A stretch of 64,000 nucleotides of DNA, from NCBI GenBank assembly GCA_051294375.1, contig CM119271.1:16454212-16518211 (forward strand), given 5' to 3'. The translations under genes were made by a program, and so were the position numbers. The DNA is from Paraspadella gotoi (Eukaryota; Animalia; Chaetognatha). Positions 17,281 through 61,773 of the stretch are shown here, piece by piece. Position 1 is the stretch's first letter. The number at the start of each line of letters is the position of its first letter. The notes under the pieces were generated by a model that was given only the letters and a program-made list of their open reading frames with translations, did no database searches and was not told the origin of the DNA.

Positions 17281-17903
17281 TGGTCTTTTCATACAATTGA
17301 AACATTCTTTGAAATATTATACCACTTCATTGATAGGGAAGCCAGGTACTCTGGGAGTGAATAAACGAGACTGTGAGAGAGTCTTGATTGAAAGCTTGCA
17401 GGGACCTGCTATGTCATTATCTTGTAAGAGTGATGGAGGCCTTAAACCACCAAAGCCTGTCCAAAGTCAGGGGCAAGATAGCTTATTTATTAAATGAATG
17501 GATAATTTTTATATTGGTTGTACCAATTTCATATATATATATATTTAATTATAATAATTTAAACAGGTCATATATTTTAAAAAAAGATTTAAAATTTTTA
17601 ATAATTCACTTTTGACTCTCTTAATTGAATCGAGGCTGGGCAGCTTAATTTTTATGAAATTGGTACAACCAATATAAAAATTATCCATTCATTTAATAAA
17701 TAAGCTATCTTGCCCCTGACTTTGGACAGGCTTTGGTGGTTTAAGGCCTCCATCACTCTTACAAGATAATGACATAGCAGGTCCCTGCAAGCTTTCAATC
17801 AAGACTCTCTCACAGTCTCGTTTATTCACTCCCAGAGTACCTGGCTTCCCTATCAATGAAGTGAAAAATATTTCAAAGAATGTTTCAATTGTATGAAAAG
17901 ACC
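17281..17903. repeat. Inverted pair (~250-bp arms) of dispersed repeat family E
   Basis: 17281-17532 is the near-perfect reverse complement of ~17653-17903. Other copies lie at ~19392, 38375, 44052, 45590, 50757, 56870 and 61185. Confidence 0.9.
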
Positions 17904-22655: not shown

Positions 22656-22906
22656 TATGGCAACAGCCGGGTTGCTGTGATGCCCTTGGGATGGGGCATC
22701 TCACTGTTGGCTTTGGGGCTTCCGACCCTCATTGACGCCTCCAGTCACTGGCGCGGTTACCCTAGGACGGTCTCGCTTTGCAACACAGAGGGAAGACGTT
22801 AGGACTGTGGATGGAACACTACGCCTGGGATGCTGTGTTCCCCCTCTGAGCCTATGGATTTGGCTGAAGCATGGTGGACGTGAGGCAGTGTGAATATACC
22901 GCCACA
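22656..22906 (-). mobile_element. Solo LTR, family B, with a twister-like motif
   Basis: TATGGC...GCCACA termini, flanks ATCC/ATCT, homologous to 33838-34086. Confidence 0.85.
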
Positions 22907-22912
22907 ATCTAT

Positions 22913-23885: not shown

Positions 23886-24097
23886 TATGGCACGGTTGGC
23901 TTTGGGGGCTTCCGACTCTCAGTGACGCCTCCAGTCACTGGCGCGGTTACCCTGGGACGGTCTCACTTTGCTAACGCAGAGGGAAGTCGTTAGGGCTGTG
24001 GATGGAACAGTACGCCTGGGATGGTGTGTTCCACCTCTGAGCCAATGAATTTGGCTGAAGGATGGTGGACGTGAGGCGGTGTGAATATACCGCCACA
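23886..24097 (-). mobile_element. Solo LTR, family B (one hairpin deleted), with a twister-like motif
   Basis: TATGGC...GCCACA termini, flanks ATAA/ATAG. Confidence 0.85.
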
Positions 24098-27252: not shown

Positions 27253-27507
27253 TATGGCAACAGCCGGGTTGCCTGTGATGCCCCTTGGGATGGGGCATCT
27301 CACTGTTGGCTTTGTGGGCTTCCGACCCTCATTGACACCTCCAGTCACTGGCGCGGTTACCCTAGGACGGTCTCGCTTTGCCAACACAGAGGGAAGACGT
27401 TAGGACTGTGGATGGAACACTACGCCTGGGATGCTGTGTTCCCCCTCTGAGCCTATGGATTTGGCTGAAGCATGGTGGACGTGAGGCAGTGTGAATATAC
27501 CGCCACA
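27253..27507 (-). mobile_element. Solo LTR, family B, with a twister-like motif
   Basis: Perfect 4-bp TSD ATCC on both sides of TATGGC...GCCACA. Confidence 0.9.
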
Positions 27508-27514
27508 ATCCTAT

Positions 27515-32209: not shown

Positions 32210-33424
32210 ACTTATGAGTGGACGGGGCGATTGATTTATAATTTTGTATGTGGGTAGGAAAGTGTGTGATTAAGCTGAAAATCAAGTTTCGATGGAATCG
32301 TTTGAGTGGAAATGAGTTTAAATGAAAAAAAAAACCTGTTTCACTAATTGATTATGCTTCTTTTTTTATATTAAATGTAAATGCAAGACGTTTTAATTAA
32401 TCAAATAATTAATCAGTTAATTAATCAATTAGTTAATTAATTAATAAATAATTATTTAATCGGTCAATTGATAAATCAATTAATTATTCAATCAATAAAT
32501 TTATTTAGTTTTGCCGCGCGGTTCTCCTTCGCGTTTTGGATCGCAAAAATGTGAGCTTCTTCCCTGTGGCTCCGGATTGGCTGGCCTTAACCAATCGACG
32601 ACGAGAGTTTCGAGAAGATAATATTACCTTTGTTCCCGCGAATTTAGCGCAAGGTCGACGAGAAAACGTGTTGGCCGAGGGTTAATTGATTCTCTCTATC
32701 TACTTGTTTTTATCTTGTTTTTATCTTGTTTTTATTCCGTTGAAGAGACAGTAATTAATGTTATATGTTAATGACAGAACCGTTCAATATAGGCAGTCCC
32801 TGAGCTTCGGATCAGGCTGTAACACCGTGTTACAGGCGGGTTTGTTAGATCCAAAGACTCGCGAATCGTGATATCTGAGTTCGAACTTTACTTCGTCACA
32901 AGGATTTATCGTTTGGATCATTTCGTCATTCGTGCCATCAACGGAATGGACCTATAAACGGACTTGGTTGGCCTTGTGATGTGATTGCTCGTCTCCTTCA
33001 TGAATCATCAGAATGCCGACGAATCACAGACCTTACTTCAACCTTAGAATGACCAATGACCGTCAGAGGAACCGACGGAGGGATTGATGGTCAAAATTGC
33101 TAAGAGAACTCTAGGCATTCACCTCTACACCCAAACTCAAGAAAGAACTCTTCTTCAAATAATTATTGAACCATTTAATATTGTCATCATCTTTGTCTTA
33201 ACCTTTGTCATCGTGTTGATGGTGTCATTCCGTTGATGGTGCTTTAGTTTATTCATTGGTTTTTGAGTTTATACTGATTTTTGTAATTCTTTTGAGCGTT
33301 TAAATAATAACTTTGATAATTATTCTTTATTGTACTGTTTCAATATCTATATGCTTTGATTATTTTATTAAGTTAGTATGGCAACGGGAGGACTACCTTA
33401 TACCGGCCGGGGGTATCTCACTAA

Positions 33425-33503
33425 CTGGCGTAGGGGCTGCGGACCCTCAGTGACCGCCTCCGTCACTGGCATGTTTATACCGGCACCGTCACATTTAAGC
33501 CAG
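33425..33503 (-). ncRNA. Predicted type-P5 twister ribozyme (LTR-A)
   Basis: CTGGC-ttaa-ATGT-GACGG-tgccggta-TAA-ACAT-GC-CAGTGAC(ggaggcg)GTCACTG-AGGG(TCCGCAGC)CCCT-A-c-GCCAG shows P5, P2, P1, P3, P4, T1 GC/GC and T2 CCG/CGG. Predicted cut at 33477/33476. Confidence 0.8.
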
Positions 33504-33887
33504 AACCGGATACCCAGGGATTGAACCCGGGACGCACGGATGGAATGAGATGATTTAGCCTGCTCAGCCATTGAACGAGGCTGAGGACGGACAGCAGTGA
33601 GGCAGCTTTAAGTCTTGCTGCCACAGGATCCCCCACCAGACCTCTCCACAGGGGCCTCAATCCTGAGGAGATGTCTGAAGGTTTTGATCTCATTGCATAG
33701 TGAGAGCGAGCGGGCGAGCGAGCGAGTCTGGAGCGTTACCAGAGAAGTAGGGCATAGGCGTGATATGCATACCCTAAGCGACTAAGCGTGGCACGCCGTG
33801 CGCAGCGGTTGCGTGTTCGATAGTAGGGCTCACCACTTATGGCAACAGCCGGTGCCTGTGATGCCCATTGGATGGGGCATCTCACTG

Positions 33888-33963
33888 TGGCTTTGGGGGC
33901 TTCCGACCTCCAGTGACACCTCCAGTCACTGGCGCGGTTACCCTAGGACGGTTCGCTTTGCCA
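33888..33963 (-). ncRNA. Predicted type-P5 twister ribozyme (LTR-B)
   Basis: TGGC-aaa-GCGA-(G)ACCG-tcctaggg-TAA-CCGC-GC-P3-P4 loop TCGGAAGC, with T2 CGG/CCG. This copy lacks the G that other B copies have in GACCG. Confidence 0.7.
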
Positions 33964-34366
33964 ACGCAGAGGGAAGTCGTTAGGACTGTGGATGGAACAC
34001 TACGCCTGGATGGTGTGTTCCCCCTCTGAGCCAATGGATTTGGCTGAAGGATGGTGGACGTGAGACGGTGTGAATATACCGCCACAGGATCCCCGGGTCA
34101 AGACATCACTCAGGTTCCTCAAGCCTGAGAGGTGTCTGACAAGACTGTTACATAGTGGTGGAGAGAGAGAGCAGCGAGTTGTGGGGGCATAGGCGTTGTC
34201 GTAGCGTACCCCAGGGCATAGGCGTTTGTTGTAGCGTAACCCGAAGTCGGCAGGGCATAGGCGTTTGTCGTAGCGTACCCTGAGAAGGTTGCGTGTTCGA
34301 TAGTAGGGCTCACCACTTATGGCACGGGAGGATAGCCTGTGATCCAGGGCGCGGGTATCTCACTAA

Positions 34367-34445
34367 CTGGCGTAGGGGCTGCGGACCCTCAGTGACCGCC
34401 TCCTGTCATGGCATGTTTATAACGCGCACCGTCACATTTAAGCCA
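34367..34445 (-). ncRNA. Predicted type-P5 twister ribozyme (second LTR-A)
   Basis: Same core as 33425-33503, with small indels in P3 and P1. Confidence 0.72.
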
Positions 34446-35656
34446 AACCGGAATACCCAGGAGTGAACCCGGGACGCACGGATGGAATGAATGATTTAGC
34501 CTGCTCAGCCATTTGAGACAGAGCTGAGGACGGACAGCAGTGAGGCAGCTTTAAGTCTTGCTGCCACATTATGTACCCCTTTTTAAACTCTTCATAAACT
34601 CAGAGAAATAAGAGAGACTATTTGATCGTCGATCTGCTCAAGCCACCAAATCATGCCTTTGAAGAATCTCTGGTCTACCGAAGCATCTCGCCGGGGCTGA
34701 GGAGTTTCCTCAAATATTCTTCGAATATTCTCGGGGGCGTTTTAGGAGGAGGACGGACCGGCGGGTCCTTACAGGTTAAGCCCCCCGTCCCTCTTAACTG
34801 CTAGGCGACCACCGGGCTAGAACCCCGGACCTTTGGTGCCTCCGGCACCAATGGCCGCTGATGAAGGGTTGGTGTGTTTTAGTCCACCATACCGTTTTTA
34901 TTCCGTTTTTATTTGTTTCGTGCCCTTTTTGATGCATTACATTATTTTATGCTAACCTTCGGAAACTTGGTCGAAATATTTAGTTCTAGTCGGCGCAAGA
35001 TCAAACATATCTATTAATTAATTATTTAATCAATCAAGTCAATCTTTATATTGTCATCGTCACCATCATCGTCGTTGTTGCTTTTGTTGTGGCCAGTGAT
35101 GAAAAGACCTTAAAACAAACATTTCAGATCAAATTAATTAATTTATTAAATTATTATTTTAGTTTATATAGTCTGTAATAATTAATTAATTACCGCTAAT
35201 GATCGTGGACAGATCCGACATTGTTCGATAGTGAACAAGTTTGAGCAAACGATGTCGGATCTGCCCACGATCATTAGCGGTAATTAATTAATTAATACAA
35301 ACTATATAAACTAAAAAATAATTTAATTAATAAATTGTTTTATAATTAATTAATAGGTAACTAAATAGATGGATTGAATAGTTGATCAATTATTTATTAA
35401 TTAATTGACTGATTGATTAACTGATTAATTAATTAACTAATACATCTTACATTTACATTTAATATAGAAAGAAAAAAAAGCATAATCAATTAGTGAAACA
35501 TATTTTTTTTGTTTTTTCCAGCTTAATCACACTTTCATGCCCACACAAAAAATTTCATTCCAATCCATCCATCCAATCACGAGCAATAGAAGTTTTTTGC
35601 TAAGGTGGGACGGACAGACGGACGGGCATCGTTTATTTTTTTTTGCATAATTTATC

Positions 35657-35872
35657 TGGCGAAAACAAAGTTTAGATTTGTACTACAACGATTTTATTTA
35701 ATATAAACAGACATGTTTCGACTCTTGTTCGAGTCTTCAAAACACTGATGAAGACTCGAACAAGAGTCGAAACATGTCTGTTTATATTAAATAAAATCGT
35801 TGTAGTACAAATCTAAACTTTGTTTACGCCAAATACTAAAACACAACGAAACGAAAGGAATACCACAATATG
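35657..35872 (+). mobile_element. Penelope-like terminal fragment with an inverted 5' arm and a 12-bp TSD
   Basis: GCATAATTTATC flanks both sides (35645-35656 and 35873-35884). 83-bp palindromic arms at 35657-35739 and 35749-35831. Confidence 0.75.
35740..35783 (+). ncRNA. Minimal type I hammerhead ribozyme
   Basis: AAACA-CTGATGA-A-GACTC(gaacaa)GAGTC-GAAA-CATGTC^TGTTT: 5-bp stem I, 5-bp stem II, palindromic ACATGT stem III. Confidence 0.85.
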
Positions 35873-37893: not shown

Positions 37894-40800
37894 ATGGTAC
37901 AATCTAAAACCTTGAGAGAGAGAGAGAGGGAGAAAGAGAGAGAAATAACGAGAGATGAAATTATTTATTTAAATGGCAAAGCGAGACTGTCACAAGATAA
38001 TCTTTCTCTCCCTTCCCTGACTTCTCACCCCAAAACCAGTCCCCCCCTTCTTCCGACGACGACGACCCCACTTCCTCCCTTCTTCCTCCCTCCCCTTCCT
38101 CCCTTCTTCCTCCCTCCCCTTCCTCCCTTCTTCCTCCGTCCCCTTCTTCCTCCCTCATCTCCTCCATTCGATCTTCTCCTTTCCTCGTTCTCTTCGTCGT
38201 CTTTGTCGCCCTCTGGTTGGACACGATGACCCTGACGATGGTCGCCCCGATCATCCCCGAGTATCTCGTCAAAATCCAAGGCCTCGTCAACGTCACCGTG
38301 GGCGGAAACGGCAAAGCGTCCGGTGAGAACTTTGGTCTATGAAAATTGACGAAATTACTTGTTCTACAATGGAATGAAATTGGTACAACCAATATAAAAA
38401 TTATCCATTCATTTAATAATTAAGCTATCTTGCCCCTGACTTTGGACAGACATCACCATTACAAAATAATGACATAGCAGGTCCCTGCAAGCTTTCAATT
38501 AACACTCTCTCACAGTCTCGTTTATTCACTCCATTCACTCCGCTATGTGATTATCTTGTAATAGTGATGTCTGTCCAAAGTCAGGGGCAAGATAGCTTAA
38601 TTATTAAATAGGTTTTATATAGGTTAAAAATTGGGTAAATATTAGGGAGAAAAGTAATTTCAGGGGATAATAATGAAAAATAAGTCGCTTTTGAATGATA
38701 TCTGATTTGACACTTTTCAGCAGAATGGATGAAAAAACATTTCGCTAATCAAGACCTTCGAGTAACAATATTATTTGCTTCCAAAGCTGCGGTTCAACTT
38801 GTTACAAACTTGTTTGTTGGTCCACTCACCAACCAAATCGGTTACAGGTACGAATGATGAAGATGATTATGACTACGAAGAAATATTAAGCTTTTTTGTT
38901 ACATGAAATCGGTTTTCCCTACCCGATTTCTGCGCCCTCTTTATTATGATTTTCCTAGAACGTCTTATTTTTAAAGGTTAAAATTAAATCTGGGATAAAC
39001 AATCAAAGACGGGGCACTCTCAAAAAAGATAGCCATGATTTCCTCATTACCTGGCCTTTCTTCCCCTCTTACCATTTGCCACTTGCCACTTGCCATCAGC
39101 TTCCCTATGTTCTTCGGATTCGTCATTCTTCTCATTTCCACAATCACTTTTGCTTTTGCCAAAACTTACGCTCTTCTCTTTGTGGCGAGAGCAGTTCAAG
39201 GAATTGGATCTTCACTCACCAGCGTTGCAGGTAAGGTTTGATTGTAAATCACTGCAGCTCTACAAACAGGAAAGCTTTTTGTAAGACAAAGGAACATTCA
39301 AAATAAACTTTATCTGCACCAACTAGATCTTCACTTACACCTGCACTTCATTAAAAGAGCAATTTTTTAAAAAAATTTTACTGTACAAATATAACTAATA
39401 TCTTAAATCTTTTAAATAATATTTTTTATTATTTTTAAATTTTTTTTTTAATTCTATATTATTTTATTCAATTTCTTATTCTATATCTTTTTAATCATAT
39501 ATCGAAACAAAAAGAATATAATAATAATATAATATAATAATATTTTTGCAAGTACAAAAATGTTATTGGTGCTGCAGTAACAGTTCAGTTTAAGCCTTTG
39601 AAAGTGATTTACATGTATTGGCGCAGCCACTGGTTTAGCTAGTTGACTGGTTAAGGTGGGTTGAATCAGTGAGACCAAATTAGTTTCTTCATTTAAGACA
39701 CATCCATTTTTTTGTATTAGCCTTCATAAAATTTCAACTCTTTTCCAAAAATGCTTCTTCTCCCCCTGGATCCTTAAACTTAATTTTAATCTTAATATTT
39801 GAAGGTGTAGAAGACGAAGAATGTAATAATAAATGTGAGGAGAAGGTGAAGAATTGTGACGATTTAAGAGAAGTAGAAAAGAAGTGATACGAGCTCTCTC
39901 CTGATCCACTTTTATCATCGCCCGGACCAACTTGACCTTACGGTCTCCTCGGCCCTATTACTGTATCTGGTCAATCTAAGGTCATTGCCAAAGCTAGGGC
40001 AAAGTGACCGTGTGGAATAGACCGGCTCGGAGAAAGAGGAGAGAGGAAGGGTTTAGTGAGAGAGACCTGTGGTAAGTCGCTAAAATGGCATTCCATCACT
40101 TAAACCTAATTCTTAACCATAACTTTAATCCCTAATCTCTAAACTTTAATACCTAACCTTAACCTAACCCTTAACCATAATCCCTAACCTAATCCATTAT
40201 CTAATCTGTAATCCAAACATCTAACTCAATCCTTAAAACTAAAGACTAACTTAATTCGGAATTTATGATGAAATGGGATGTTTTTGGAATGTAAGGCAAA
40301 GTTATCCCGGTCATCTTAATACAAGGCATGGGAATGCTTGCTGAGCACTATCCAGACGACAAAGCACGAGGCCAAGCCATGGGCATCGCGCTCGGCGGGT
40401 TGGCACTCGGTACTGTCATGGGTCCTCCATTCGGCGGCATCATGTATCAGTTCTTTGGGAAAACTGTACCGTTTCTGGTTGTTGCCGTTTTGGTTTTACT
40501 GGATGGTCTAATTCAGGTGAGGATGAAGTAAACATTATTAAACACTACAGGGTAGTGATTCAAAACTTAGAAAATCCGTATCTCGTCATCTTTTTTTTAT
40601 TTTGTAACGCATCGGTGCATTTAAAGAAAAAAATTTAATTGAAGATACTTAACCAGACCTTGTTCTAACTATTAAAGAAGTGCGACAAGCACTACTGCAA
40701 AAACCACTCCTGCCACAGCACCTAAAAGAATCACAGCTGCTCTTCATAAACGCTTCTGAAAGATTGATTCACAGCTCCTAGACGGTTTACCCTATGCCAT

Positions 40801-43800
40801 TGATATTTTGGTTGAAAGTCATATGGGTCTCCCCCTATTTAAAACGCCTTACTTAGCACAGTTTAGGGGAATTAGATTCGGATATTTTCAAGCCCGGAAA
40901 TCATTCAGTCAAAAATTAAAATGTTGCTACAGCTGAAATTTTTTTTTTAAGCTGTATATAACAATGCCCTTTGTTACAGCCATGCATAATAACCCCAAGA
41001 GTATTGGCTCTTTATACATGTCAAGAAATTGAATCTGAGAACAATACAGTAGACTGCAGCAATGGATTTTTGACCAAGAGCAAAAATATAAGGAAGTATT
41101 TATCTTTCATCTGATGCTGAAGTAGATTGCATTAAGTAATGTATTTGATATTTTATACTACATCAGTTATTGATTTCATAAGCTCAGAGAGATGGCACTC
41201 GACCAGAGTAGCCACTACAGTATGAACTTAAGAAAAAAAAGACATTTTTACAGCATCTCAAAATTGCATTTATTAATTAAGGTTAAAATAAGTCTTGGTA
41301 AACTGCGGCAGTTAAATGGCCATAGGATAGTAAATATTTCTAAATGGAGTTCTTCATTTGCTCTCTTTAAAATTTTTCTTTCAGCATAGAAAAGAGCTAC
41401 TAGCGTGCATATTGTTGGTTTTGGTTATGCTATTATTGCTACCTGCAGCATATATATGGCCCTAATCGACTCGGGCTTGAGCGCATGTTTTCCCGACTAA
41501 GAATAGTAGTTATTCCTATTCTTATTAACCTTCTTAATAATATAACATACTGCTAGGGAACATTGACATAATTAATAGTGGTTTTAAGCTCTAAACCGGC
41601 GCAGAGCAAATTCAACAAATGTCGCATTCTTTTTAGTAGCGTAGCGTATTGAAAAAGCTAGAGGAAAATAAAACCTGTATCAGAAAAAGAAAACATCACT
41701 GATTATTTTAATGTATTATAAAAAGACATTCGTTAACTTTTTGCCTATAAAATCTGATGGTAAATACTATTCTAAGTTTTGATTAATAAATATATATACA
41801 GTGTATATATATTAATATTTATATATTATGTGCTCACAAAAGATTTAATTTATTTTTCATTCAATACAAATACAAATTTAAAAAAATTAAAATTAAAAAA
41901 AAAAGAAATAAGAAATAAAAAAGATAAACAAATACACAAATAAATAAATAGACAAATAAATAAATAAATATATACTCTTTCAAAATTAAATGACAAATTT
42001 TCAATTAACTGCGTTTTCAAACTGCAGCTGGTGATGTTACAACCTCGGGTCGATAAGAACAACATCCAGGGTCCTCCGATGCTTAAACTTCTCTCCGATC
42101 CTTACATCCTGCTCTGCGTGGTGGCCATTTCACTTGGCAACATGTGTATAGGGTTCTTAGAACCCACTCTGCCACTGCACATGATTGAAGTCATGCATTC
42201 CAAAGTTTGGGAGATTGGTTAGTATCTTAACTAGGTTTGTGCTCATTGCTCTCAAAACTTAATTTTGACTTTCAAATCCACTTACATATATGTTTTGCTG
42301 ATTTAAAACAAAAATTATTTCTGAGGCAGTGTATGTATAAAGTTTGAGCAAAGGCAGGGAACTCCAGTTAGCCAAAGTTAGTTGGTTACTAATATGAAGC
42401 AATAGCCTGTCAAGGAATTGCGACTAAAATAAAAGGTTTTGAATGTCAGAGTTTCTACACAATCTAGGTCATATTAAAACCCTCCTGAGAAACTTAATAA
42501 AAAATATTTACTATAAATCAATATCGTTAAAATAAAAGTAAAAAAAGGGTAATTAACAAAAAATGGTATTAAAACAGGATTAATCTTCTTACCCGCCACC
42601 GTCGCCTACTTATTTTCAACAAATCTCTTTGGATACTTGTCCACATTGATGGGCCGCTGGATCATTTGTTTAATTGGTGAGTAAAAGTTTATCAACTTTC
42701 TCTCATTGTATATATAACTCCGATTAGTTAATGGACACAAGTATAATTATTATATAAAAATATAGTGTTTTTGTATTTGTTACAACGATTTATTTTAATA
42801 GACGGACATGTTACGACTCTTTGGGTTCGAGTCTTCATCAGCATTTGAAATTCACAAACTTTTTTCAAATGCTGATGAAGACTCGAACCCAAAGAGTTGA
42901 AACATGTCCGTCTATTAAAATAAATCATTGTAACAAATTCAAAAACACTTTGTTTTCTCTAAATATTAAATAACAACGAAAAGAAAGTATTCCTATCATA
43001 TTTCCTTCCATTTAGCTTAGGAGTTATTAAATTTGTAGATTTAAAAATAGTCAAGATTGAAAGCTGGTCGGGTCGGGTCCGTTTAAAGTAAAGAACAAAA
43101 AAAAACAAAAATGTTTGCTCGTGAATTCATTTTAATTTAAAATCAATTCAACAAATATAATATTCATTTTTTCCTTCAGGAAATATTTTGGTGGGCGCAT
43201 CTTTAATCTCCATCACTTTTGCTCTCAACATCTACGAACTCATAGCTCCAATGTTTGGCCTCGGTTTGGCCTGCGGAATGATAGATTCCTCAATGTTTCC
43301 TCAGTTGGGTAAAGCCTATTGAAGATTGTTTATAAGTGATAAAAATGAAATTGCTGTTAAATTAACAAACAAACAAAATTGGGCTTTCCTTTCTGTTCCT
43401 TAATCTCTTAACTTAATTTTAATTTTAATATTTAATCTTACTTGGTTAACTTCTCATAACCCAATAACCAACCATAATTCCAAATCGATAATCTAATACC
43501 TAACCTAATTCATTAACCTGATCACTAATGTAATCCTTAACCCTAAACTTAATCTTTAAACTAATCCTTTAAACCTAAAGACTAATTCCAATTCAGAATT
43601 TAGATTAAATGGGGTGTTTTGGGAAAATGATAATAAAATGGGACGTTTTGGGAAAATGAAGATAAAAAGGGGGTTTTGGGAAAATGAGGATAAAATGGGT
43701 CGTTTTGGGAAAATGAGGATAAAATTGTTTGTTTATTCTTAGCTCAGGACTAACTCAATCTGGTGTTTGTCATTTTGAAAAAGAATAATCTTTAAAAAAA

Positions 43801-45192
43801 TTTAATAGGTAGTACTTACCCTAACCAACTATAACAACAGAGTTAAATAATTATACATTTTTATTTTAAAACTAAATCTAAATATAATTTCAGGTTATCT
43901 TGTGGATATGCGCCACGTGGGAGTCTATGGCAACGTCTACGCCATTGGAGATTTGGCAATTTGCCTCGCCTTTGCAATTGGACCCTTCCTTGCCGGGCCG
44001 ATTATAAAAGCAGGTGACGATTTGAAGGATGAACTGGTTGACTACTTTATTATGAAATTGGTACAACCAATATGGTGGTTTAAGGCCTCCATCACTCTTA
44101 GTTTTACAAGATAATGACATAGCAGGACCCTGCAAGCTTTCAATCAAGACTTTTTCACAGTTTCGATTATTCTCTTCCAGAGTGCCTGGCTTCCCTAATA
44201 ATAAAGTGGTATAATATTTCAGAGAATGTTTCAATTGTATAAAAGAACCACTCCCTTATTTGATTGATTGATTTGAGTCATTGATTTCTTAAATGTCATT
44301 GATTGATTAATCCCTTGATAAATATAATGATGGATTAATTGATTTGATAATTAAATTATTTAGTGATTGATTAATGATTAATTGATTGATTATTCAGTAA
44401 GGCAAAGTAAAATTTATAAAATAAACTTTAATTAAAATTCTAAAAGTGAAGAATGAACAACATTATACAAATGAACATTTAAGTATCAATAAATTTTATT
44501 ATAAATTTTACAATTTACGCGGTAAGCTATATTTGTACATATTACTAATCATATAAATGTTAAAACTTTAAAATAATTTTTTTAAGGATTTTTTTTGCAG
44601 ATTTGTAGATTTATATTTTCTTTTATCAACTTTTGACGAGGAATTCAAATCTGTAATTAAAATTAAGAAAATCCTATTTTGATATTTTTCAATTTTATAA
44701 GGATAAATTATAAGTATAAATTTAACCTACTGCGAAAATTAAAACACATAAAATATTTTTTTATATAAATTAATGTTCACTGATGGTATTTGTTCATAAT
44801 TAGTTTTTAGAAATTTTGTGCATAACTTTCACTACGCTTTATTATTAAGTGATTGATTGATTTTTTTTATTGATTGATTGGTTTGAGTCATTGATTGCTT
44901 AAATGTCATTAATCGCTCAATTGCCATTGATTGATTAAAATCGTATGAAATTTTTTTTAATAAAATAATTTATTTGGTAATTAAGTTAATGAGTGATTGA
45001 TTGATTGATTCAGGTGGATTCTCCATCGCCTGCTTCATCGTGGGAGGCCTCTCCATCAGCAGCGCACCTCTGCTTCTATTTCTTAGAAATCCGAAAGGAA
45101 GGAAAGAAGGGGAAGAGGAAGAGGAGGAATCTGGGGGTGGAGGAGATTCAGTGGGTGTTGGAGAAAGTGTCGCTTACGGGAGTTTAGGGTGA
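37894..45192 (+). CDS. VMAT: Vesicular monoamine transporter (SLC18A1/2-like MFS transporter)
   Basis: Exons 38040-38322, 38721-38847, 39100-39230, 40326-40516, 42028-42217, 42578-42676, 43180-43308, 43894-44013 and 45014-45192 have phase-compatible GT-AG junctions. The start may be ATG|GT at 37894. Motifs [33 protein letters not shown] (VMAT rather than VAChT), FLEPTLP, IDSSM and [14 protein letters not shown]. Confidence 0.93.
42764..42949. ncRNA. Palindromic pair of minimal hammerheads (Penelope-like) in a VMAT intron
   Basis: 87-bp inverted arms. The + copy CTGATGA(42872)-A-GACTC..GAGTT-GAAA-CATGTC has an intact core. The - copy has GAAA changed to GTAA. Confidence 0.8.
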
Positions 45193-45781
45193 ACGAAGTG
45201 AAAGGGGGTGGAGTGATGGTGGGCGTTGGCGGCCCTTATTTTCTGAAAGCGATCCATTTCAGGTTAAATCTAGAATTAAGATTGATTTTAAATTTAAAAA
45301 TTAAAGATGTTAGGTTAAGGTTTAGGAATATGGTAATATCTTTGGTTGGGGGTTAAGAAATAGGGTTAAGTGTATAATATAGTATTAAATATTTGGTAAG
45401 ACTAAAAGGTAAGGGGAACTTTCGAAAAATAGTGCTGGAGACGAACCATTTGAGATATTCGTTGTCTCGCGTGCCACATTTCAAAGACGATAATCAATCG
45501 TAACATTTTACTTTTGCTCAAATAAACAAATATTTTCTACCGAATCCTTTTTCTTTTTTTTTCAACTCAAATTATGAGTTTGAGTTTATGGCTCCAACCA
45601 ATATGTTGTATAAAAATGATCCATTCGTTTATTTTAACAAAAAAGCTATCTAGTCTCCTATCAGGCTGTACTAGTGTACTCGCGCGTATAAAATAATAAC
45701 ATAGCAGGACCCTTTAATCTTTCAATCAAGACTCTCATGGCAAAGCTCATCGACTTCCAGAATATCTAATAAAGTTGTTGT

Positions 45782-48328: not shown

Positions 48329-51300
48329 TCAGCAAGTCGTGGTGACTCCCTTCTTCCGGAACCGTTCGTCCGCAAAGGCAGATGGATCGAGCGATTGAGG
48401 CTGAGGATTAGTGTCAACTCTGAACAAATCCTCGTCTACAGTATCCATGGAAACGCGGTCACCGTCCTGAAGCGGCGAGGGGGAGAAGGAATGGACGGAG
48501 GGGCAATAATTATATTTTTTGGAAAGTTATTCAAGCATAATTGATAAATTTTATTGAAAAATACACAACTTTAATCTTTAAAAAATAATAATCTAAAAAG
48601 TTTTTGAGGTAATTATTCAGATGAGACCGGGTATAATTAATTAATAAAAAGTCTACAACCGACATCAGCATTTTCGAAACTTTTCCATTAATCTCGACTG
48701 ACCGACTTTCCCATCATTGCCACTTTTCCCATATCTCGACTGACCGACTTTCCCATCTATCCCACTTTTCCAATCTCTCGTGAAATCTCGACTGACCGAC
48801 TTTCCCATCTATGCCACTTTTCCCATAATCTCGACTGACCGACTTTCCCATCTATCCCACTTTTCCCATTATCTCGACTGACCGACTTTCCCATCTATGC
48901 ACTTTTTTCATTATCTCGACTGACCGACTTTCCCATCTATGCCACCTGCCAAATGACGTTCGGTTTCCCAGATTCAAGATCACCGTCTTCCTTTGGGTTT
49001 TTGTTGACGTCATTGCCGTCTGCTCCAGTGGCAACAGTGTTGGTGGAGCCGGCGTTAGTCTAATAGTGGAGTGGGAAGGTGGAGTGGGGAGGAGGAGCAA
49101 GGATTGAAGCCGATTATGAAGCGCAATCGTGGAATAGACAACCTTAAACTCATTAGCATATTGTATTATTCACAAGGATGTTTTTAAATTTTAAATATAA
49201 TTTTATTTATAATTAATCTCATGTAATAGTTTTTATTTTAATGCTCTCGATATACACATCTTATATAGTGTTTTTCGGATTTCTGAGAATTTTGAGAATT
49301 AAAAAACACATATTTCGACTCAAACTCGTTGTTTGTAACAAATAAAAACCATGAAACGGCTTTGAACCTGGCGTGGGGGGTCGCTATGCCCCCCAAGCCG
49401 TCCTCACGCTTTCCGTAGAGCAAGTACCTGGTTGGGAATGATCCCGATTCCTGGTTTATTCCCAAACTTTGCCTCTATCACCATGCCCACTGCCCAGTCC
49501 CAAACTTTCCCCGTCCCCACCCACAAACCCATCTTCCCCTCGCCCCCTTCCAAACACCTTATACGTCCCCCATCTCATCTCCTCCACTTTTCCGATGCAT
49601 CCGGCGCAGCAAGCAATGGTCTTCAACTTCTTCATCACGATGTTATCCTTCACCGCGCAGCAGACGACGATGATGACGACGATGGCGATGATGACGAAGA
49701 TGATGACGATGATCCATCCTAGACATAGACATAACCGATGAAAATTAATTGCTAATCTGTACAGTGTCATCAGCATAGGAAATAAATATTTTGTTCTGAG
49801 GGTACTAGTCTAATTAAAAGTTTTATATTACTACGTACGTACGTACTATATAATCAAAATATTTTTAAATCTTAAAATTTAAAGTATTAAAAGTTTTCTT
49901 ACTGGAAATTTAAAAAAATGATAAAATCATAGAAAGATGATATGTTGATGATGACTTATATATTTTTATAAGTTTATATTACTTTTCTTATTTATGACCC
50001 ACTTATTATCAAACTATTGAAAAAATAATTATGTAGTTTATGTAGAGAACTTTTTAAAAAGCAACCTAAATCCGGTTTTAAAAATTTAATTTAATCGAAG
50101 AAAAACTTTTTGTCTTTCCCAGCTTTTTTAAAATGTATAAAATTATAAACTATAAATTTTCATTTGAGCAGCTGTACTCACTTCAAATTTTTGACTCACC
50201 CCATTGAGTCAGGCTATCTCAGGGAGGTGGGTAATCTCTGTCTTCTTACTTAATTCTAAAATTAAAAGATGGTAATCAAATTTTGTATTGAACCTTTTGT
50301 GCTCTATCAGAATCTATCAAAAAAATTTAAGATTTTTTTTAAAAAACTTTTTCTCGTTATAACTATATAAATATAGTAATATTGTAATTTTGATACCAAC
50401 AATAAAAGCATTAAAATCGAACTTTAAAAAAAAATCTTTTTTTACCTGAAAGTAGACTTCCAGACTAAACTTTTAAACCCCAGTCCCTTTTGATTTTAAT
50501 TTCATTATAGATATAATCTACCGATAGGAACTGCTTGCGAGGACGGGTCCGTGGGTGAAATAGTCGTCGGGCGTAACGTTACGCGGCACGGCGTTGGAGC
50601 GGCGTCGTTTTCAAAGACGGAGGCGTTGACGACGCCGCAAGTGTAGACGAGCTCTTCGTTGGCGACGCCGGTCGGGGAGAGACGGACGTACTTTAGGGGG
50701 AGAAAGAGAAGGCCGATAAATGAAGGAAGTTGACCGAAAGCTCGCAGGGTTTTGTTATGAAATTGGTACAACCAATATAAAAATTATCCATTCATTTAAT
50801 AAATAAGCTATCTTGCCCCTGACTTTGGATAGGCTTTGGTGGTTTAAGGCCTCCATCACTCTTACGAGATAATGACATAGCAGGTCCCTGCAAGCTTTCA
50901 ATCAAGACTCTCTCTCAGTCTCGTTTATTCACTCCCTTTGTTATTATCTCCTTAGAGAGATGAAGGCATAAATTTACCTCAATCTGTCAAAAGTTAGGCA
51001 ATAAAATAGCTTATTTATTGAATGACATGATAATTTTTGTATTAGGTGTACCAATTTTATAAAAGTCAGCGCCTTGTATTTGGAAAGGGGGGAATGGGAT
51101 GATGCTCATCAAAAGCATGCGAGGTTTTGGGGCTCTTTTTTCCAAAAGGGTCTCATATCTGTTCCTTAATCCCTGTACTTAAGCTTCAACCCTATAAATA
51201 GAATGAAACGGAAAAAATGTAGATATAATTAACGAAATAATCTTACCTTTCGCTCATTGTTGTTCGATGTCATCATTGAAAAGTTAACATTTTTCCACTC

Positions 51301-54418: not shown

Positions 54419-56344
54419 TCACAACAAAAACAAATCACTCACACTTGTCACCTCCACCGTGACCTTTCCCGGTTTCGGCAAACCCTTTTCTCTCCACCTG
54501 CCCTCCAAATCGGCCGTGTACACTCTCGTATCGTCAGTGACCGGGCAAGGAAAGACCGCCTTGCCCATGTAAGAATCCTTGAGAAGGTTGCTGTTCCAAA
54601 CTTGGACTGTGATTGGACGAGAGGGAAAGCGACGATAGAAGATGAATTCTTCGCCGAATCCCGGGTTGAGGTTGTCCTTTTGTTTACATAACAAATTAAA
54701 TAATCATTCTTAAATTGGTAACACCAATTTCATAACAATATTATATTATAATTTATATAAATTTTATTTCTATTCAATCACACTGCCCACCATCTCCGAC
54801 CACACTGCCCATCATCTCCGACCACACTGCCCACTTACCTTGACCACCTCCGTCTCTACTTTCTCTCCACCCACGACGCCCTTCTCGCACTTGACTGCGC
54901 AATAAGGATCAGCGCCGCCGGAAGCGTCTTCCTTCTCCAACCCCATCGCGCTTACGACCTTTTGATGGGATTGAAGCAATCATTTATTCAATTATTTAAT
55001 TCTTGAATCATTCATTCCATTCATTAATTAAATGATTCAATTCTTCATTCGATCTTTCATTCATCCAGTCATTCATTCTTTCATTCACTCTTTCATTAAT
55101 TAATTCAATCATTATTACTTACCTTGACCCTCACGGCGGAGTTGTAATCCGGTCCGCAGAATTGGTGCCAAGCCTTGGACGGGTGATGCTCGATCAGGGC
55201 CATGGCGCTCGACCTTTTGTCGGTGTAGATGCGAAGAAGAAAATCACCCTGGAACAAATTGGGATTAGTATGAAAGGAAGGGCTAGGGTTAAACTCAATC
55301 ACTTAATGTTTTCAGAATTTGGATGCTTATATGTAGTGATTGATCGACTTGTCTGCCTTAGCGATTCTAGATCAGTCTAACTATATTCACATTAAGCTAT
55401 AAGCATTCCCAATGGCCATGCTAATAGTCTGATTCATTCAGCCCTGCTTGGTCCGACCACCGTAAGACCCCCAAGCATAACCGAGCATAACCTGTCCAAA
55501 GTTTATTAAATGAAATAATATTTTTTATACATTAGTTGTATAATAGTATAATAGTATAACAATATTCACACGCTATATAATCATATGATGAAAAAAGGAC
55601 TCCTACAGACCTCGTGACCCGGATCGAAGGTGCAGGGCACGACGACGTAGCGGCCCGCAGGAAAGCGGCGGCGCAGAAAGACGCTGCGAGAATTGACGTA
55701 AGTCGAGGCGGCGACCGTCTTTCCTATTTGATGGACGATCGAGCGTCGGTTCTTCTCCACCTATTTTTGGGGTAAGGAGAGTTGGGGAAGAGAGAATGGT
55801 GAGTTTAGGGCGGGGGGAGGGCGGGAGGGGGGAGAGAGAGGGAGAGAGAGAGGGGAACGGGAGCAGAGAGAGTGTAAAAAAGTGTAAAGGGCAAAAAGAA
55901 GAAGAAAGGGAAGGAAAGGAAAGGAAAGGATAGGAAAGAAAAAGATAGGTTAGAAAAGGTAGGAACTAGGAAAAGATTAAAAAAAGAAAAATGATGGAGA
56001 TTACAAGATGTGAAGAAAAGAAAAGAAAAGAAAAGAAAAGAAAAGAAAAGAAAAGAAAAGAAAAGAAAAGAAAAGAAAAGAAAAGAAAAGAAAAGAAAAG
56101 GAAAAGAAAAGAGAGAAGAGAAGAAAATCCTAACCTTCATGATGCTAAATCCCATGGAAAGGTTTCCCTCTTCACCAGACTTTCGATTCGCCCGTCGATC
56201 TCGTTGCTGCAAAGAAATCAGCACCAACTCCCCATTCTCGTCATTCTCTACGCAGCTGAAGGCGAACTGGGGATTCTTCAAGAACGTGTCTCGGTTGTTC
56301 GGGCAACCACCGGCTAAGTCTGGGCGCGTCCAAGAAGCTTTTGG

Positions 56345-56392
<48 letters not shown>

Positions 56393-59300
56393 GAGAGATG
56401 GGGAGGGAACAAGTTTGAGCAAACAACGTCGGATCTGTCCACGATCATTATCATTATCATAATTAATTAATTAATTAATTAATTAATTAATTAATTAATT
56501 AATATTAATTCAAGTTAATTAATTATTTGATTAATTAATAATTAATTTATTCAATTGAGTTATTTAATTAATTAGGAAATTAATTAATTAATTTGATCCG
56601 TAATGTTTGTTTTTTTTGCAGAATTTTCCAAACTTTGTTAAATCATAGTTTATCATAATTCGATGTTCTGACATGATAAAAGTGAATGCCCGACAAGATT
56701 GAGGGGGCGGACCAACGGACCGACAAAGTGAATTATAGAGTCAGGATCTGCTGAAAGCAGATCCGACTAAAAAGACAGGGAATAAGTAAAACTAAAAGGG
56801 ACAGAAAACTATTAAAATTAACAGTGAAAGTTTTAGTTTTATTAAGAAAGGCCGTTTAGCCCTTCCGGAAATAGGGATACTGAAGCCAGGTCGTCTGGGA
56901 GTTAATAAACTGGACTGAGAGTCTTGATTAAAAACTTTCAGGATCTTGCTATGTCATTATCTTGCTATGTCATTATCTTACTATGTCATTATCTTGCTAT
57001 GTCATTATCTTGCTATGTCATTATCTTGCTATTATGGTGGACTAAAATCCACCAACCGTTCATCAGCGGCCATTGGTGCCGGAGGCAAGTCATTCGCCTC
57101 CCAACCCAAAGATCCGGGGTTCTAGCCCGGTGGTCGTCTGGCAGTTAAGAGGGACGGGGCGCTTAACCCGCCTGTATCATGGTGTTACAGCTTGATCCGA
57201 AGCTCAGGGACTGCTTATATTGAACGGTTCTGTAATTAACACTTATCAATAATTACTGTCTCTTCACTATGTCATTATCTTGTAAGAGTCAGGGAGTCAA
57301 GATCGTCGAATTCTTATTACTAAAAATTCAGTCCTCCACTATGGAGGCTATAAACTACTGAAGCCTGTCCAGAGTTAGGGGTCAGATAGCTTATTTCTTA
57401 AATGAATGGATAATTTTTACATTGGTTGAACTAATTTCATAAAACTTAAACCAAAAAATGACAATAAAAAAATTAATGAAAAAATCCGGAGAAAATAACG
57501 AATGATTCAATAAAACAAATGCGTGTATGAGTGAGAGAAAGAGAAAAAGAAGAGAGAGAGAGAGAAAAGGTCGATGTGTCGTGAATTGTGAAGTTGAGAC
57601 GGAAGGAGAAGAGGAGGAAGAAGAGGAAGAAGAGGAGGAGGAAATAAAAAAGAAAGACAAAAAATTGATGCGATAATAACCAAATGATTGATGCAATGAT
57701 AACCAAATGATTGATGCGATGATAGTCATTCACTGATGCGATTATAGTCATTCATTGACGCGATGAATTATTCAACGTAAATAAAACAAACAAATGCGTG
57801 TATAAGTGAGAGAGAGAGAAAAAGAGAAGTTAAACCGCTGCAGAGCTAAAATCGGTTTTTTTAAATGAATCAGAAGTTGCAGCGCATGACAAAAGAAAAA
57901 TAAATATATATATAATTTAAAGAAATAAAAGAAAGACAAAAAATGTTACAATTGTTTACAATCGTATTTAAATATTGTATACAATTGTAATTAAAAGAGA
58001 AAAGAGAGCTTCATACACCCAAATTTAATTATAAAAAAGGCGATCGATAATTTGTAACGACGACGACGACGACGCCTAAGCTACGCCACTTATGCCCAAA
58101 AGCGTTACTAGCGATTGCTACGATAAAAAAGCGTGACGCCGACGCAGACAACGACAACGATTACGACAACGACGACGACGACACAAAGAAGCTAAAGCGA
58201 TCCAAAATCTAGCCAAGACCGGCTTAAGCCCGTCTGGCGAGATAACAACAATCTCTCCCCTTTATTCCTTTTCGTTCACCTGAGAAACAATACTCGAAGA
58301 AATTCCTTTCAAAAGAAAGAAAGGAAGTGTTGACGACTCGACAAACAGCGACATCAGTAAATGCGGAGACGAAATCGTCAAACGACATCCAGAACTCTCC
58401 ATTGTCCTCAAAGGAAAGATCGAGTTTGGCTTTTTCTGAGTCGGAGATCTTGTTCCATCTTAAGATAAAAGGGTCGTGTGGCAAATAAACGACTTAATAT
58501 CGACTTCAAATGAGTCAAAATGGAGGTGGGATTCAAAAAAATGAGCTCCTGGCGATTCCGAAATGAATTCACTTTGAACATATGATGCGTTTTACGCCAT
58601 ATATTATATTATATTTATATTACTATGCATAGTAATATAAAAGAAAAGAAAACTATCTGAAGCGAAAACAAAAAATTCAATAGAAATAATTTTGTAATTT
58701 AAACTTGTTTCCAAATAAAAAAAAACTTATAAAACCAAAACAATAAATTATTATGCGACAGAAACGATTTTATTAATATGTCTCTGTATTGAATTTCTGA
58801 AAAAGTTTCGAGTAAGATTGATACACATTTTTTAAATTGATATTACTGCAGACTGAAAAGGGGAGGGAGGGAGAGAAAAAGAGAGAGACAGAGAGAGAGA
58901 CTCATTTTGCCCCTACCTTTCATCGCCGTCAGAGAATGACCCATTCCACTCTTTCTGACCCCAAGGATTTCGTAGTCGAATCATATCAAGTTTTTCTCCT
59001 CCACCAAAAAGACCAAAAAGCCCAGAGTCGCCGCCTGTGGAAATCTGAAAAGAACACAAAATATCATTTGCATATTACAGTAAAAACTTGTTGGTAAGTT
59101 TTGGCCTCCAAACGACCTTATTAGGAAATTGTCTATGTTTCGCCAACTTTTCTATGCATAATTATTATTTTAGGCTAAAGAAGAACAAAAATTAATTCGA
59201 AAAAATTATCTTGGGTTATGTTTAAAATAATTAATGTGGAGTATAAGAGAAAAAATCATTACCACGTAGAAATCTTAACGCTTTTCCGAATTAATTAAAT

Positions 59301-61773
59301 AATTAATTATTACCATTTTATAAATTTCTAAATTTACTTTCATTTGTTTATGTCGTATTTTTTCTTATTTTTTTACACTCGTTTTGTTTCAAAATTTAAG
59401 CCTTCTTTGTATAATGAAATAGTTGAGATTGACAAAAAGTGTCGCGATAATATTATGACATCTGAAGCGAACCCGTTTGACGGCTGTGATCCCGTAGGCG
59501 TGGCCCTGGACGAGCCCATTGTCGAGTTTAGCTTCCATCTCTTCGGCGGACTTGGCGGAGATGGCCGCGGCGAGTAGGGCTTCGCGCGAATGGGCTTCCT
59601 GATAAATGAAACAATATTTAAATACTAATTCTACAAATGTATTCATCATTTTGAAAATCTTACTAAAATTTTATATTGAATTAGAAATCAAAAAAGATGA
59701 ATATGAAACAACAACAACAATAACAACAACAACAATAACAACAACAACAATAACAAACAATACCAACGAAAGGTTAAAAAAAACTATGATAAAAAGTTTA
59801 CAAAACATCAAAAACTCACTCTCTCTCACACTTTTCTATAAATTTTCTCGTTTTTGTCATTTATTTTAAGATTTTACTTGTTTGTTTATTTTCTTATTTT
59901 CCAAATAATAATTATAATAAAGAGGAAAACAAAACTCCAAAGACCTTGAGCTTCTGAAAAAGCTCTTCTCTCTCCTCCTCCCGTTCGACGTAATTGTCCT
60001 CCACCAGATCGATTGGCTCCGCGACGCCTCCGGTGAAGTCGACGAGCGCTTCCGCAAGATTGCCTCCGTCGAGGACTTCGTAGCAGCTGTGGACCTTGTG
60101 GAGATGAGAGAGGAGGGTGTAGAGATGAGAGAGGAGNNNNNNNNNNNNNNNNNNNNNNNNNNNNNNNNNNNNNNNNNNNNNNNNNNNNNNNNNNNNNNNN
60201 NNNNNNNNNNNNNNNNNGGTTGTGGAGATGAGAGAGGAGGGTTTGGAGAATGAGAGAGGGTGTGGGAGATGAGAGAGGAGGGTGTGGAGATGAGAGAAGA
60301 GGGTGTGGAGATGAGAGAGGAGGGTGTGGAGATGGAGAGAAGAGGGTGTGGAGATGAAGAGTGGGTGTGGAGATGAGAGAGGAGGGTGTGGAGATGAGAG
60401 AGGAGGGTGTGGAGATGAGAGAAGAGGGTGGAGATGAGAGAGGAGGGTGTGGAGATGAGAGAGGAGGTGTGGAGATGAAAGAGGAGGGTTGAAGATGAAA
60501 GAAGAGGATGTGAGGAGAGGAGAGAAGAGGAATGATGTAGATGATGGAGAGGAGGGTGTGAGAGATAGAGAGAGAGGGTGTGGAGATGAGAGAGGAGGGT
60601 GTGAGATGAGAGAGAGAGGGTGTGGAGATGAGAGAGAGAGGGTGTGAGATGAGAGAGAGAGGGTGTGGAAGCATGTGAAAAGAGAGAGGAGGGTGTGGAG
60701 ATGAGAGAGGAGGGTGTGGAGAAGAATTGGGATTTCAGAAAAAAACCAGAAACCGTGACAATCCTCACCTTTGCGTAATTCTTGACCAGCAGCTAATCTT
60801 CACCTTGGCGTAAGCCTTCTTCAGCAGCCAATCCTCACCTTGGCGTAAGCCTTCTCCAGCAGCCAATCCTCACCTTTGCATAATTCTTGACAGCAGCCCA
60901 TTCTCACCTTGGCGTAAGCCTTCTCCAGCAGCGCGCTCCAGAACTCGTTCCTCTCTTTGGAATGGATAAAGATAAGTTGGCCATCGACGGTCGGCAGTCG
61001 ATCGTCGATCACAACGTCGATCCATTCACCAAATTGCCAAAAGTGAAAGTGGAAGATTCCGGCATAAGGATTCTTTTCCTCCCATTCTTGTCCGGAGGGA
61101 ACGATCTTAAAAAAGGGGTTTGAGGTTTGAGAAGGAGGGGTGAGATGTATATTCATATATATTCATATATAAATTCATATATATACAATTGAAACATTCT
61201 TTGAAACTTTATTCCAATTCATTAAATACGGAAACCAGTTACTCTGGGAGTGAATAAAGGAGACTGTGAGAGAGTCTTGATTGAAAGCTTGCAGCGACAT
61301 TATGTCATTATCTTGTAAAAGGGATGGAGAGTTGTAGACCTTGATTCGCAAAATCCAGTCCAAAATCAAGGTCAAGATACGTATATTTTTCAGAATTATT
61401 TTATACATTTTCTCTCTCTATCTCTCTCTCTCTCTTTCGTATGGATCATATCATTTTACAGGATTATTTTATACATATTTTCTCTCTCTCTCTTTCTCTC
61501 TCTCTCTCTCCTCTCTCTCTTTTCTCCTTTCGTATGGACAGTATCATTTTTCAGGATTATTTTATACATATTTCTCTCTCTTCCCCTCTTCTTCTCTCTC
61601 TCTCTCTCTCCTCTCTCTCTTTCTCTTCGTATGGACCGTATCATTTTTCAGGATTATTTTATTACATATTTTCTCTCTCTTCCTCTCTCTCTCTCTCTCC
61701 TCTCTCTCTTTCTCTTTCTCTTTCGTATGAGATATCATTTTTCAGACGAGTTTATACATATCTTTCTCTCTCT

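Follow-up and report, generated by a model that had tools for sequence, protein, structure and literature searches.

A stretch of 64,000 nucleotides (nt) from the chaetognath Paraspadella gotoi (contig CM119271.1, positions 16,454,212 to 16,518,211; the whole stretch is called the window) contains three families of short long terminal repeats (LTRs), A, B and C, and in one C copy, at 57141-57214, a twister ribozyme fold had been flagged from the letters alone. Judged from the sequence, this fold is a real and selected twister-like structure lying in true LTRs of animal mini-retrotransposons. We infer a role of self-cleavage in the replication of these elements. Our sample comprised this single 64-kb window of AT-rich DNA with many repeats, public motif scans and published papers, which are cited by number for particular passages.

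The evidence for selection comes from paired changes. Positions were fixed by the conserved GA, UAA and loop L4, and one best copy was taken from each of four families, the fourth being a dispersed non-LTR repeat, family D. Under these conditions 52 of the 54 cells were paired across families (permutation mean 40.5; reached by 0 of 100,000 permutations). Both partners had changed at 10 out of 14 anchored positions, which is every variable position, and these changes fell in P2, T1, T2 and P4. When four C copies and two D copies were aligned on sequence alone, 95% of the cells were paired and 11 of 20 pairs had changed on both sides, whereas sliding the partners left at most 2 both-sided changes and lowered pairing to 25-50%. 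Both pseudoknots, T1 and T2, covary across families. The sequence-only reading had stated that selection acts on the ribozyme structure, and these both-sided changes bear it out; the shuffle statistics ignore relatedness and cover four families only. In the A/B alignment of six copies 87% of cells were paired and 4 of 22 pairs had changed on both sides. A covariance model built from A and B only found all five full C copies at 14.5-21.1 bits, and the reverse model from C and D weakly recovered A2 (11.9 bits, E 0.25) and no B copy. A covariance-model match at 37971-38041 was inspected and dismissed as a chance match. P1 and a segment downstream of it seemed to co-vary between A1 and A2, but this was discounted, indels being the main difference between these copies (16 gap columns, 6 mismatches).

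Anatomy of the fold

The elements follow each other in the order P5, P2', GA, T1', P1, UAA, P2, T2, P3, P4/L4, P5', that is, in the P5 permutation. All stems quoted by the earlier reading were found in the sequence. In family A these are P2 ACAT/ATGT, P3 CAGTGAC/GTCACTG, P4 AGGG/CCCT and P5 CTGGC/GCCAG. Family B has P2 CCGC/GCGA and a 3-base-pair (bp) pseudoknot swapped to CGG/CCG, and family C has P3 CTGTAACA/TGTTACAG, P4 CCTGA/TCAGG and P5 GCAGT/ACTGC. In the flagged copy P3 contains an A·A mismatch and P4 a U·G pair.

Some names and pairings had to be revised. The swap between CCG/CGG and CGG/CCG had been assigned to T2; the pairs are present, but this 3-bp pseudoknot is named T1 in PMC5408937 and PK2 in PMC11662667, and the true T2 is a GC dinucleotide. 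P2 of family C, given as CC(C)/GG, is imperfect as described, but CCC/GAGG with a bulged A reads better. P2 was rightly called imperfect in both B and C: pairing is 4/4 in A, 3 pairs plus C·A in B, and 3 pairs plus a bulge in C and D. The contrast in P3 across families holds for the stems but not as covariation between A and B, in which P3 is identical. Mutations of T2 or UAA had been noted in several C copies; they are an A·C mismatch in C1-C4, which hits T1, and UGA in C3.

Fold counts refer to the 11 unsplit LTR copies, the split copy C6 being left out, and rows D3 and D4, wrongly placed by the automatic parser, were omitted from the fold table. UAA is kept in 10 copies, all except C3, and the general-base G is followed by A in 10, B1 being one base short; both features also occur in D1 and D2. 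T2 is whole in 11 out of 11 copies and T1 in 7, with the A·C mismatch in the remaining C1-C4. P4, with an 8-nt loop containing U…A, and the closing P5 are found, although P4 has only three pairs in B and is broken in B3 and B4. The spacing of U^AA, G-A, the U…A in L4, T1, T2 and P4 agrees with the consensus lines of the Rfam twister. Cleavage is predicted about 149 nt into the LTR in A and B and 132 nt in C. As far as sequence can tell, all catalytic features checked are twister-like; the exceptions among the features compared are the P1 hairpin and the Rfam score.

In PMC11662667 about 2,600 natural twisters were surveyed and about 94% were active. Tolerance extended to flaws in P1, P2 and P4, to replacement of A by C at the A·A position and to C·A mismatches within the long pseudoknot; activity was lost when the A following the cut was changed. 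The departures seen here are of the kinds called tolerated in that paper, namely imperfections in P1, P2 and P4, the A-to-C of family A and the C·A in the pseudoknot. By these tolerances A1, A2, B2, C5, D1 and D2 are plausible active copies. C3 with its UGA, B1 with its lost core base and the split C6 are probably catalytically dead, and the activity of C1, C2 and C4 is uncertain.

LTR elements and the dispersed family D

The repeats had been read earlier as LTRs, and their termini, primer site, purine tract and target duplications support this. In families A and B the ends are TGT…ATA, the primer site is of the tRNA-Trp type, the purine tracts (such as those before B1 and A2) are short, and the target duplications measure 4 bp. 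Their primer site, TGGTGAGCCC, matches the description of the CsRn1 clade in PMC2582038, which gives TGT…ATA or AAA termini, a TGGTGAG/CCCC tRNA-Trp primer site and 4-bp duplications. Family C has the primer site with one mismatch and 4-bp duplications, but TAT…TCA ends. ARAGORN returned no usable tRNA from the window for comparison with the primer site. Presumably the primer box matches tRNA-Trp over a longer stretch. Target duplications were perfect in 4 of 8 insertion units, had one mismatch in 3 and were lacking in 1. The LTRs measure about 235-255 nt and the internal regions 185-231 nt. With a motif in both LTRs, primer site, purine tract, non-coding interior and 4-bp duplications, the elements have the layout of an LTR retrozyme.

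The count of twelve LTR copies given before is right once C6 is taken as one copy. Self-comparison of the window yielded 2 A, 4 B and 7 C pieces, two of which (34891-34774 and 32842-32741) are halves of one C LTR split by a 1.93-kb insert, so that 2 A, 4 B and 6 C copies result. They represent about 7 independent insertion events, since B2/B3 and C1/C2 sit within one 98%-identical duplication. The insert in C6 (32843-34773, minus strand) has TG…CA ends and an AACC duplication, measures about 740 bp without the A-B-A tandem that it holds, occurs as a single copy in the window and is possibly a solo LTR of a larger element. The tandem itself (34568-33377, minus strand) consists of three LTRs in the order A, B, A. 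Internal regions of 231 and then 212 nt separate them, each with a primer site after the preceding LTR and a purine tract before the next. The tandem changes family within the primer-site and purine-tract boxes that A and B have in common, which suggests that A and B RNAs had been packaged together and recombined. A short motif ending CGCCTATGCCC occurs three times in its first internal region and once in the second, partly in predicted hairpins, and is possibly a packaging signal.

In the two-LTR C element a primer-site-like box lies at 46017 and a purine tract before 46201; in C3 the terminal ~18 nt are inverted. The downstream flank of C4 (46333-46744, plus strand) is shared with C6 (32497-32842, minus strand) and is itself repeated, which may explain the absent target duplication of C3-C4. 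At 27507-27515 and 22906-22913 B and C LTRs stand back to back with overlapping target duplications, and C3 and C5 likewise lie in or beside family-D copies, hinting at a shared target preference.

Families A and B are homologous, as their whole-LTR local score was reached by 0 of 300 shuffles. The statement that C has almost no primary similarity to A or B was confirmed, the corresponding scores being reached by 19 (A-C) and 45 (B-C) of 300 shuffles. The fold is found in all three families, but common descent of C with A and B is unsupported, and the apparent keeping of one fold may reflect two captures of a twister. The core of C matches the core of family D, with 0 of 300 shuffles reaching the score. 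Family D was overlooked earlier and first became visible through weak Rfam Twister-P5 matches. It consists of about 11 pieces of a non-LTR dispersed repeat with a fixed 3'-end, 5'-truncations and inverted pairs. A fixed 3'-end, 5'-truncation and inverted partial copies are the pattern of Penelope-like elements (PMC8557442), and family D appears Penelope-like in this pattern. The stems of D1 are P5 TCTTG/CAAGA, P2 ACC/GAGT, T1 CCA/TGG, P1 AGGCCT, T2 AC/GT, a minimal P3 and P4 CCTG/CAGG. A 75-amino-acid frame (17689-17916, minus strand) runs across the D ribozyme; protein searches with this frame found no relative and no protein link to Penelope-like elements.

Table 1. Positions in the window of LTR copies, internal regions, the flagged fold in C5 and family D
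Feature	Position	Strand	Remarks
LTR A1 (TGT…ATA), 5' LTR of A-B-A tandem	34318..34568	-	predicted U-1 at 34419; indels in P3, P1
Internal region 1, 231 nt	34087..34317	-	tRNA-Trp-type primer site 34315-34306; short repeat three times; short terminal purine tract
LTR B1, middle of tandem	33838..34086	-	one base missing at core GA
Internal region 2, 212 nt	33626..33837	-	first 31 nt as region 1 including primer site; terminal purine tract
LTR A2, best-preserved twister	33377..33625	-	all core pairs; P1 TGCCGGTA; predicted U-1 at 33477
Solo LTR B2	22656..22906	-	catalytic core intact
Solo LTR B3, duplicate of B2	27253..27507	-	GGAT target duplication; P4 broken
Solo LTR B4	23886..24097	-	deletion near 3' end; P4 and P1 substitutions
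LTR C1, duplicate of C2	22913..23128	+	3' end lost; T1 A·C mismatch
Solo LTR C2	27515..27748	+	CTAT target duplication; T1 A·C mismatch
Two-LTR C element, C3 and C4	45782..46438	+	185-nt interior; no target duplication
LTR C6	32741..34891	-	ACGG target duplication; split just after UAA by 1.93-kb insert holding A-B-A tandem
Solo LTR C5 (TAT…TCA)	57033..57266	+	CTAT target duplication; inside family-D copy; holds flagged ribozyme
C5 P5-permuted twister fold	57141..57214	+
C5 P5	57141-45/57210-14	+
C5 P2	57149-52/57167-69	+	bulged A
C5 general-base G	57153	+
C5 T1	57155-57/57197-99	+
C5 P1 linker GGCGCT, palindromic	57158..57163	+	hairpin 1 bp and tetraloop; homoduplex 6 bp
C5 predicted U^A cleavage site	57164..57165	+	inferred from twister consensus
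C5 T2	57170-71/57202-03	+
C5 P3	57172-90	+
C5 P4	57191-95/57204-08	+
Family D pieces	17281-17538, 19383-19553, 38542-38609, 50936-51064, 56876-57449, 61183-61379	+
Family D pieces	17648-17962, 38374-38532, 44051-44258, 45609-45736, 50752-50936	-
Family D twister D1	17420..17477	+	weak Rfam Twister-P5 match 25.8 bits (gathering 37.6)
Family D twister D2, second intact	17709..17766	-	in inverted partner copy

Palindromic P1, proposed replication and its alternatives

The linkers between T1' and the cut are TGCCGGTA in A2, TCCTAGGG in B, GGCGCT in C and AGGCCT in D. P1 is thus a 6-8-nt palindrome in all four families, a feature on which the sequence-only reading was silent, and is too short for a stable hairpin. 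A hairpin would have 1-2 bp around a 4-5-nt loop at +2.4 to +5.6 kcal/mol and does not amount to a stem; the innermost P1 pair is impossible within one strand. As a homoduplex the linker gains six to eight pairs, at -8.3 to -11.0 kcal/mol. No two families have the same four central bases, yet these always form a palindrome, with 12 out of 12 central cells self-complementary (permutation p 0.003); among random four-base centres 6-8% are palindromic. The palindrome occupies the exact P1 slot, also in the non-LTR family D. This self-complementarity despite differences between families suggests a strand-swapped double twister, in which the P1 duplex brings the GA/T1' half of one molecule next to the UAA half of its partner, as double hammerheads do. 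The swapped dimer lies 11.7-15.1 kcal/mol below two monomer folds in all five copies evaluated, and A2, when cofolded without constraints, adopted the secondary structure of the double twister in full. Cleavage as a dimer has been proposed for hammerheads of Penelope-like elements with a short palindromic stem (PMC6765202).

We lean towards the view that these are small non-coding LTR elements, with a twister in each LTR, that would replicate like plant LTR retrozymes. In the plant model the unit RNA is ligated, tRNA-primed, copied by the Ty3/gypsy machinery and integrated with a 4-bp duplication (PMC7761336). A read-through transcript would be cut at the same site in both LTRs to yield unit-length RNA, and it is quite probable that the twister folds perform this cut. 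The released RNA would be devoid of terminal redundancy, and the chances appear even that it is for this reason ligated into a circle, with reverse transcription crossing the junction. A tRNA-Trp-type primer and a CsRn1-type Ty3/gypsy helper would copy the circle into more than one unit, which would integrate with a 4-bp duplication; mobilisation of A and B by a CsRn1-clade element seems likely. By way of the P1 palindrome two like ribozymes might join as a strand-swapped double twister, aiding the cut when both LTRs are present. Such promotion of cleavage is a tentative proposal with slightly less than an even chance. In the A-B-A tandem two A ribozymes could excise a 942-nt unit carrying B; the tandem and the apparent absence of LTRs chimeric at the cut site fit such like-with-like cutting by the A ribozymes. 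The whole scheme, in which animal LTR retrozymes parasitise CsRn1-type Ty3/gypsy elements as small circles cut by a natural double twister, with P1 as coincidence detector and two or more captures of the twister, one of them from a Penelope-like tail, is speculative and taken together rather doubtful. If it were true, cutting would occur only with two like LTRs, solo LTRs in host transcripts would stay quiet, and B within A-B-A would ride uncut.

A number of observations weigh against these proposals. The TAT…TCA termini of C fall outside the CsRn1 pattern, and neither a reverse transcriptase or integrase motif among 552 open frames nor a helper element was found within the window. An undamaged catalytic core remains only in A1, A2, B2 and C5 among the 12 LTR copies, within-family variation is mostly disruptive with many copies decayed, and four of the six C copies have the T1 mismatch, among them both LTRs of the sole two-LTR C element. 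PMC5408937 relays the suggestion that the active site may be disturbed when P2 gains or loses pairs, a caution that applies to C and D, both one P2 base short. The count of 4 both-sided pairs in the A/B alignment was also reached by 159 of 500 shuffles, and the A/B covariance model gave one false positive at 15.6 bits and missed D. Concerning the dimer, only 1 of 8 unconstrained cofolds was a full double twister and 3 of 8 had a P1-centred duplex, any hairpin RNA gains energy on dimerising, and in whole-element folds computed without pseudoknots the two P1 linkers were essentially unpaired with each other (0.0 and 0.009 expected pairs). The P1 duplex of C is unexceptional among permutations of its own letters (7/60), and the linkers of A1 and B4 are imperfect. 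Cleavage does not require P1 according to PMC5408937 and PMC11662667, and a tether of 6 nt might simply loop, so that dimerisation is not necessarily obligatory. The predicted circles are 55-61% paired (z -0.3 to -2.0 in 4 of 4 circles) and show no strong self-pairing; metazoan retrozyme candidates are quoted as above 70% paired.

Instead, twisters active as monomers might merely trim RNA, giving a free 5'-end from read-through or forming the 3'-end, with the palindrome serving dimerisation for packaging or strand transfer. This would agree with the dispensability of P1, imperfections of which leave cleavage undiminished (PMC5408937, PMC11662667), with the 5'-end processing proposed for Perere-3 and RTE twisters (PMC8501958, PMC7761336), with the lack of unusual stability in the predicted circles, and with the absence of a poly(A) hexamer from the 3' half of all 7 LTRs scanned. 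We regard trimming as rather unlikely. The ribozyme is present in both LTRs, so that cutting strips the terminal redundancy. Ordinary LTR strand transfer needs this redundancy. The palindrome, moreover, sits exactly in the P1 slot even in family D. From the A-B-A arrangement, ribozymes cutting alone would give rise to LTRs chimeric at the cut site, but none was evident in the small sample of 12 copies.

Less probable still is a relic fold, captured from a Penelope-like tail such as D, in elements that move as ordinary miniature terminal-repeat retrotransposons (TRIMs). The alignment of the C and D cores would fit this, as would the damage in the majority of copies and the T1 mismatch common to both LTRs of the two-LTR C element, where the copy that transposed was probably mismatched already; for that pseudoknot, however, C·A mismatches are reported to be better tolerated (PMC11662667). 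Families A and B share their LTR ancestry along the length and at the termini and yet differ by both-sided changes in T1, P2 and P1, so that selection acted once the LTR state had been reached, and between C and D there are compensatory changes in P5, P2, T1, T2, P4 and P1. Chance pairing in GC-rich repeat DNA, or DNA-level palindromes without RNA structure, is largely refuted by the anchored pairing test and the C/D alignment and is very improbable. In its favour, free-energy z values of the cores are unremarkable (-1.5 to +0.6; -0.30 in the flagged copy) and plain folding fails to reveal the fold, as expected for a double pseudoknot. The Rfam scan of the window gave 0 matches at the gathering score, with weak twister matches below it in D (25.8 of 37.6 bits) and B1 (15.1 of 67.2 bits) and none in C5 even at E≤10; miRNA matches in the E-value scans were inverted repeats. 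A loose descriptor was uninformative, with a mean of 17.9 matches in shuffled DNA. A strict sequence-general twister descriptor, in contrast, had 5 matches in the window (A1, A2, two D copies and one AT-rich false match) and a mean of 0.13 per window in 30 block shuffles. Also against chance, both pseudoknots covary, pairing drops when partners are slid, and the twister lies on the genomic strand, with the primer site on the same strand in all three LTR families.

Comparison with known systems and further features of the window

The elements resemble plant LTR retrozymes (PMC4918200, PMC7761336), which are non-coding, carry a ribozyme in each LTR, have a primer site after the 5' LTR, a purine tract before the 3' LTR and 4-bp target duplications, occur as solo LTRs and trimers, and depend on a Ty3/gypsy helper. 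Plant LTR retrozymes have type III hammerheads and a tRNA-Met primer, whereas the elements of the window have an animal host, a twister and a tRNA-Trp-type primer; they are also smaller and their predicted circles are not strongly self-paired. They would thus function like a plant LTR retrozyme, yet are not members as defined by hammerhead and tRNA-Met site. In the passages available LTR retrozymes are placed in plants, and animal retrozymes are described as non-LTR with hammerheads (PMC7761336, PMC4918200, PMC9695139, PMC11722881), metazoan ones being without LTR, primer site and purine tract (PMC4918200, PMC7761336). The elements of the window show this LTR architecture in an animal and with a different ribozyme class. 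This points to convergence on cut-and-circularise replication and to a second retrotransposon role for the twister.

With the type-P5 twister (RF02684, PMC5408937) the fold shares the permutation, U^AA, the general-base G, the A·A and U·A positions, T1, T2, P4, the optional P3 and the closing P5. In that type P1 is a stem with a loop, whereas here it is a 6-8-nt palindrome, and the 14 P1-internal positions of the model align to none in D. P2 differs by having three pairs with a mismatch (B) or a bulge (C, D), and the loop-adjacent P4 pair in C is A-U instead of the nearly invariant G-C. All copies score below gathering for RF02684 and the twister models, and such elements would be systematically missed by Rfam thresholds. 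The CsRn1-clade elements PwRn1 and AgCR (PMC2582038) share TGT…ATA ends, tRNA-Trp primer site, purine tract and 4-bp duplication; the elements here differ in being TRIM-sized and without gag-pol, in carrying a predicted ribozyme, of which the passages covered on PwRn1 and AgCR make no mention, and, in family C, in their termini. The T-variants of Perere-3 in Schistosoma mansoni (PMC8501958) likewise tie a twister to a retrotransposon and tolerate a weak or variable P1, but Perere-3 is a non-LTR RTE element with a type-P1 ribozyme at its 5'-end, the P1 of which is completed by the target site, in contrast to the P5-permuted, LTR-internal fold described here. The dimer-cleaving hammerheads of Penelope-like elements (PMC6765202, PMC7761336) have a comparable short palindromic stem that is unstable in one strand, and a tandem partner; they belong to another ribozyme class and need the stem, whereas P1 of the twister is reported to be dispensable. 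A P1 that stays palindromic through several sequences would offer a natural reason to keep a helix that biochemistry finds dispensable and, if true, the first case of a dimer-gated twister.

No report of a twister in an LTR element or of a natural dimeric twister was found in the passages of open-access literature covered; the supplement of PMC11662667 with its ~2,600 twisters lay outside this search and may hold cases. A canonical-core pattern with short P1 matched 6 viral and 47 prokaryotic-genome loci, among which were no relatives of these elements, and a C/D-derived pattern matched 1 viral locus and 10 from metagenomes, in none of which L4 agreed. Hence no outside member could add covariation, a further point on the negative side. 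The prokaryotic-genome matches mostly lack P2 pairing and look like chance. Loci L002, L003 and L005 on viral contigs and L023 are twister-like but resemble junctions of neighbouring twisters. In these four a 6-7-nt linker separates the T1 strand of one core from the next UAA, with the same local topology as here, and such junctions are a possible route to the P5 permutation.

The duplication that contains B2/B3 and C1/C2 (20423-23135 and 25002-27737) also carries an open reading frame for a CD20-like membrane protein (25741-26697; Pfam CD20 E 7.9e-5, below the cut-off), which is frameshifted in the first copy, possibly by an assembly error. Calpain exons with domain III and a C2 domain (Pfam) were found at 54422-54676 and 56132-56338 on the minus strand. 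Long near-perfect inverted repeats and a 70-bp tandem array at 35653-35835, 42757-42956 and 29692-30540 are unrelated to the twisters.

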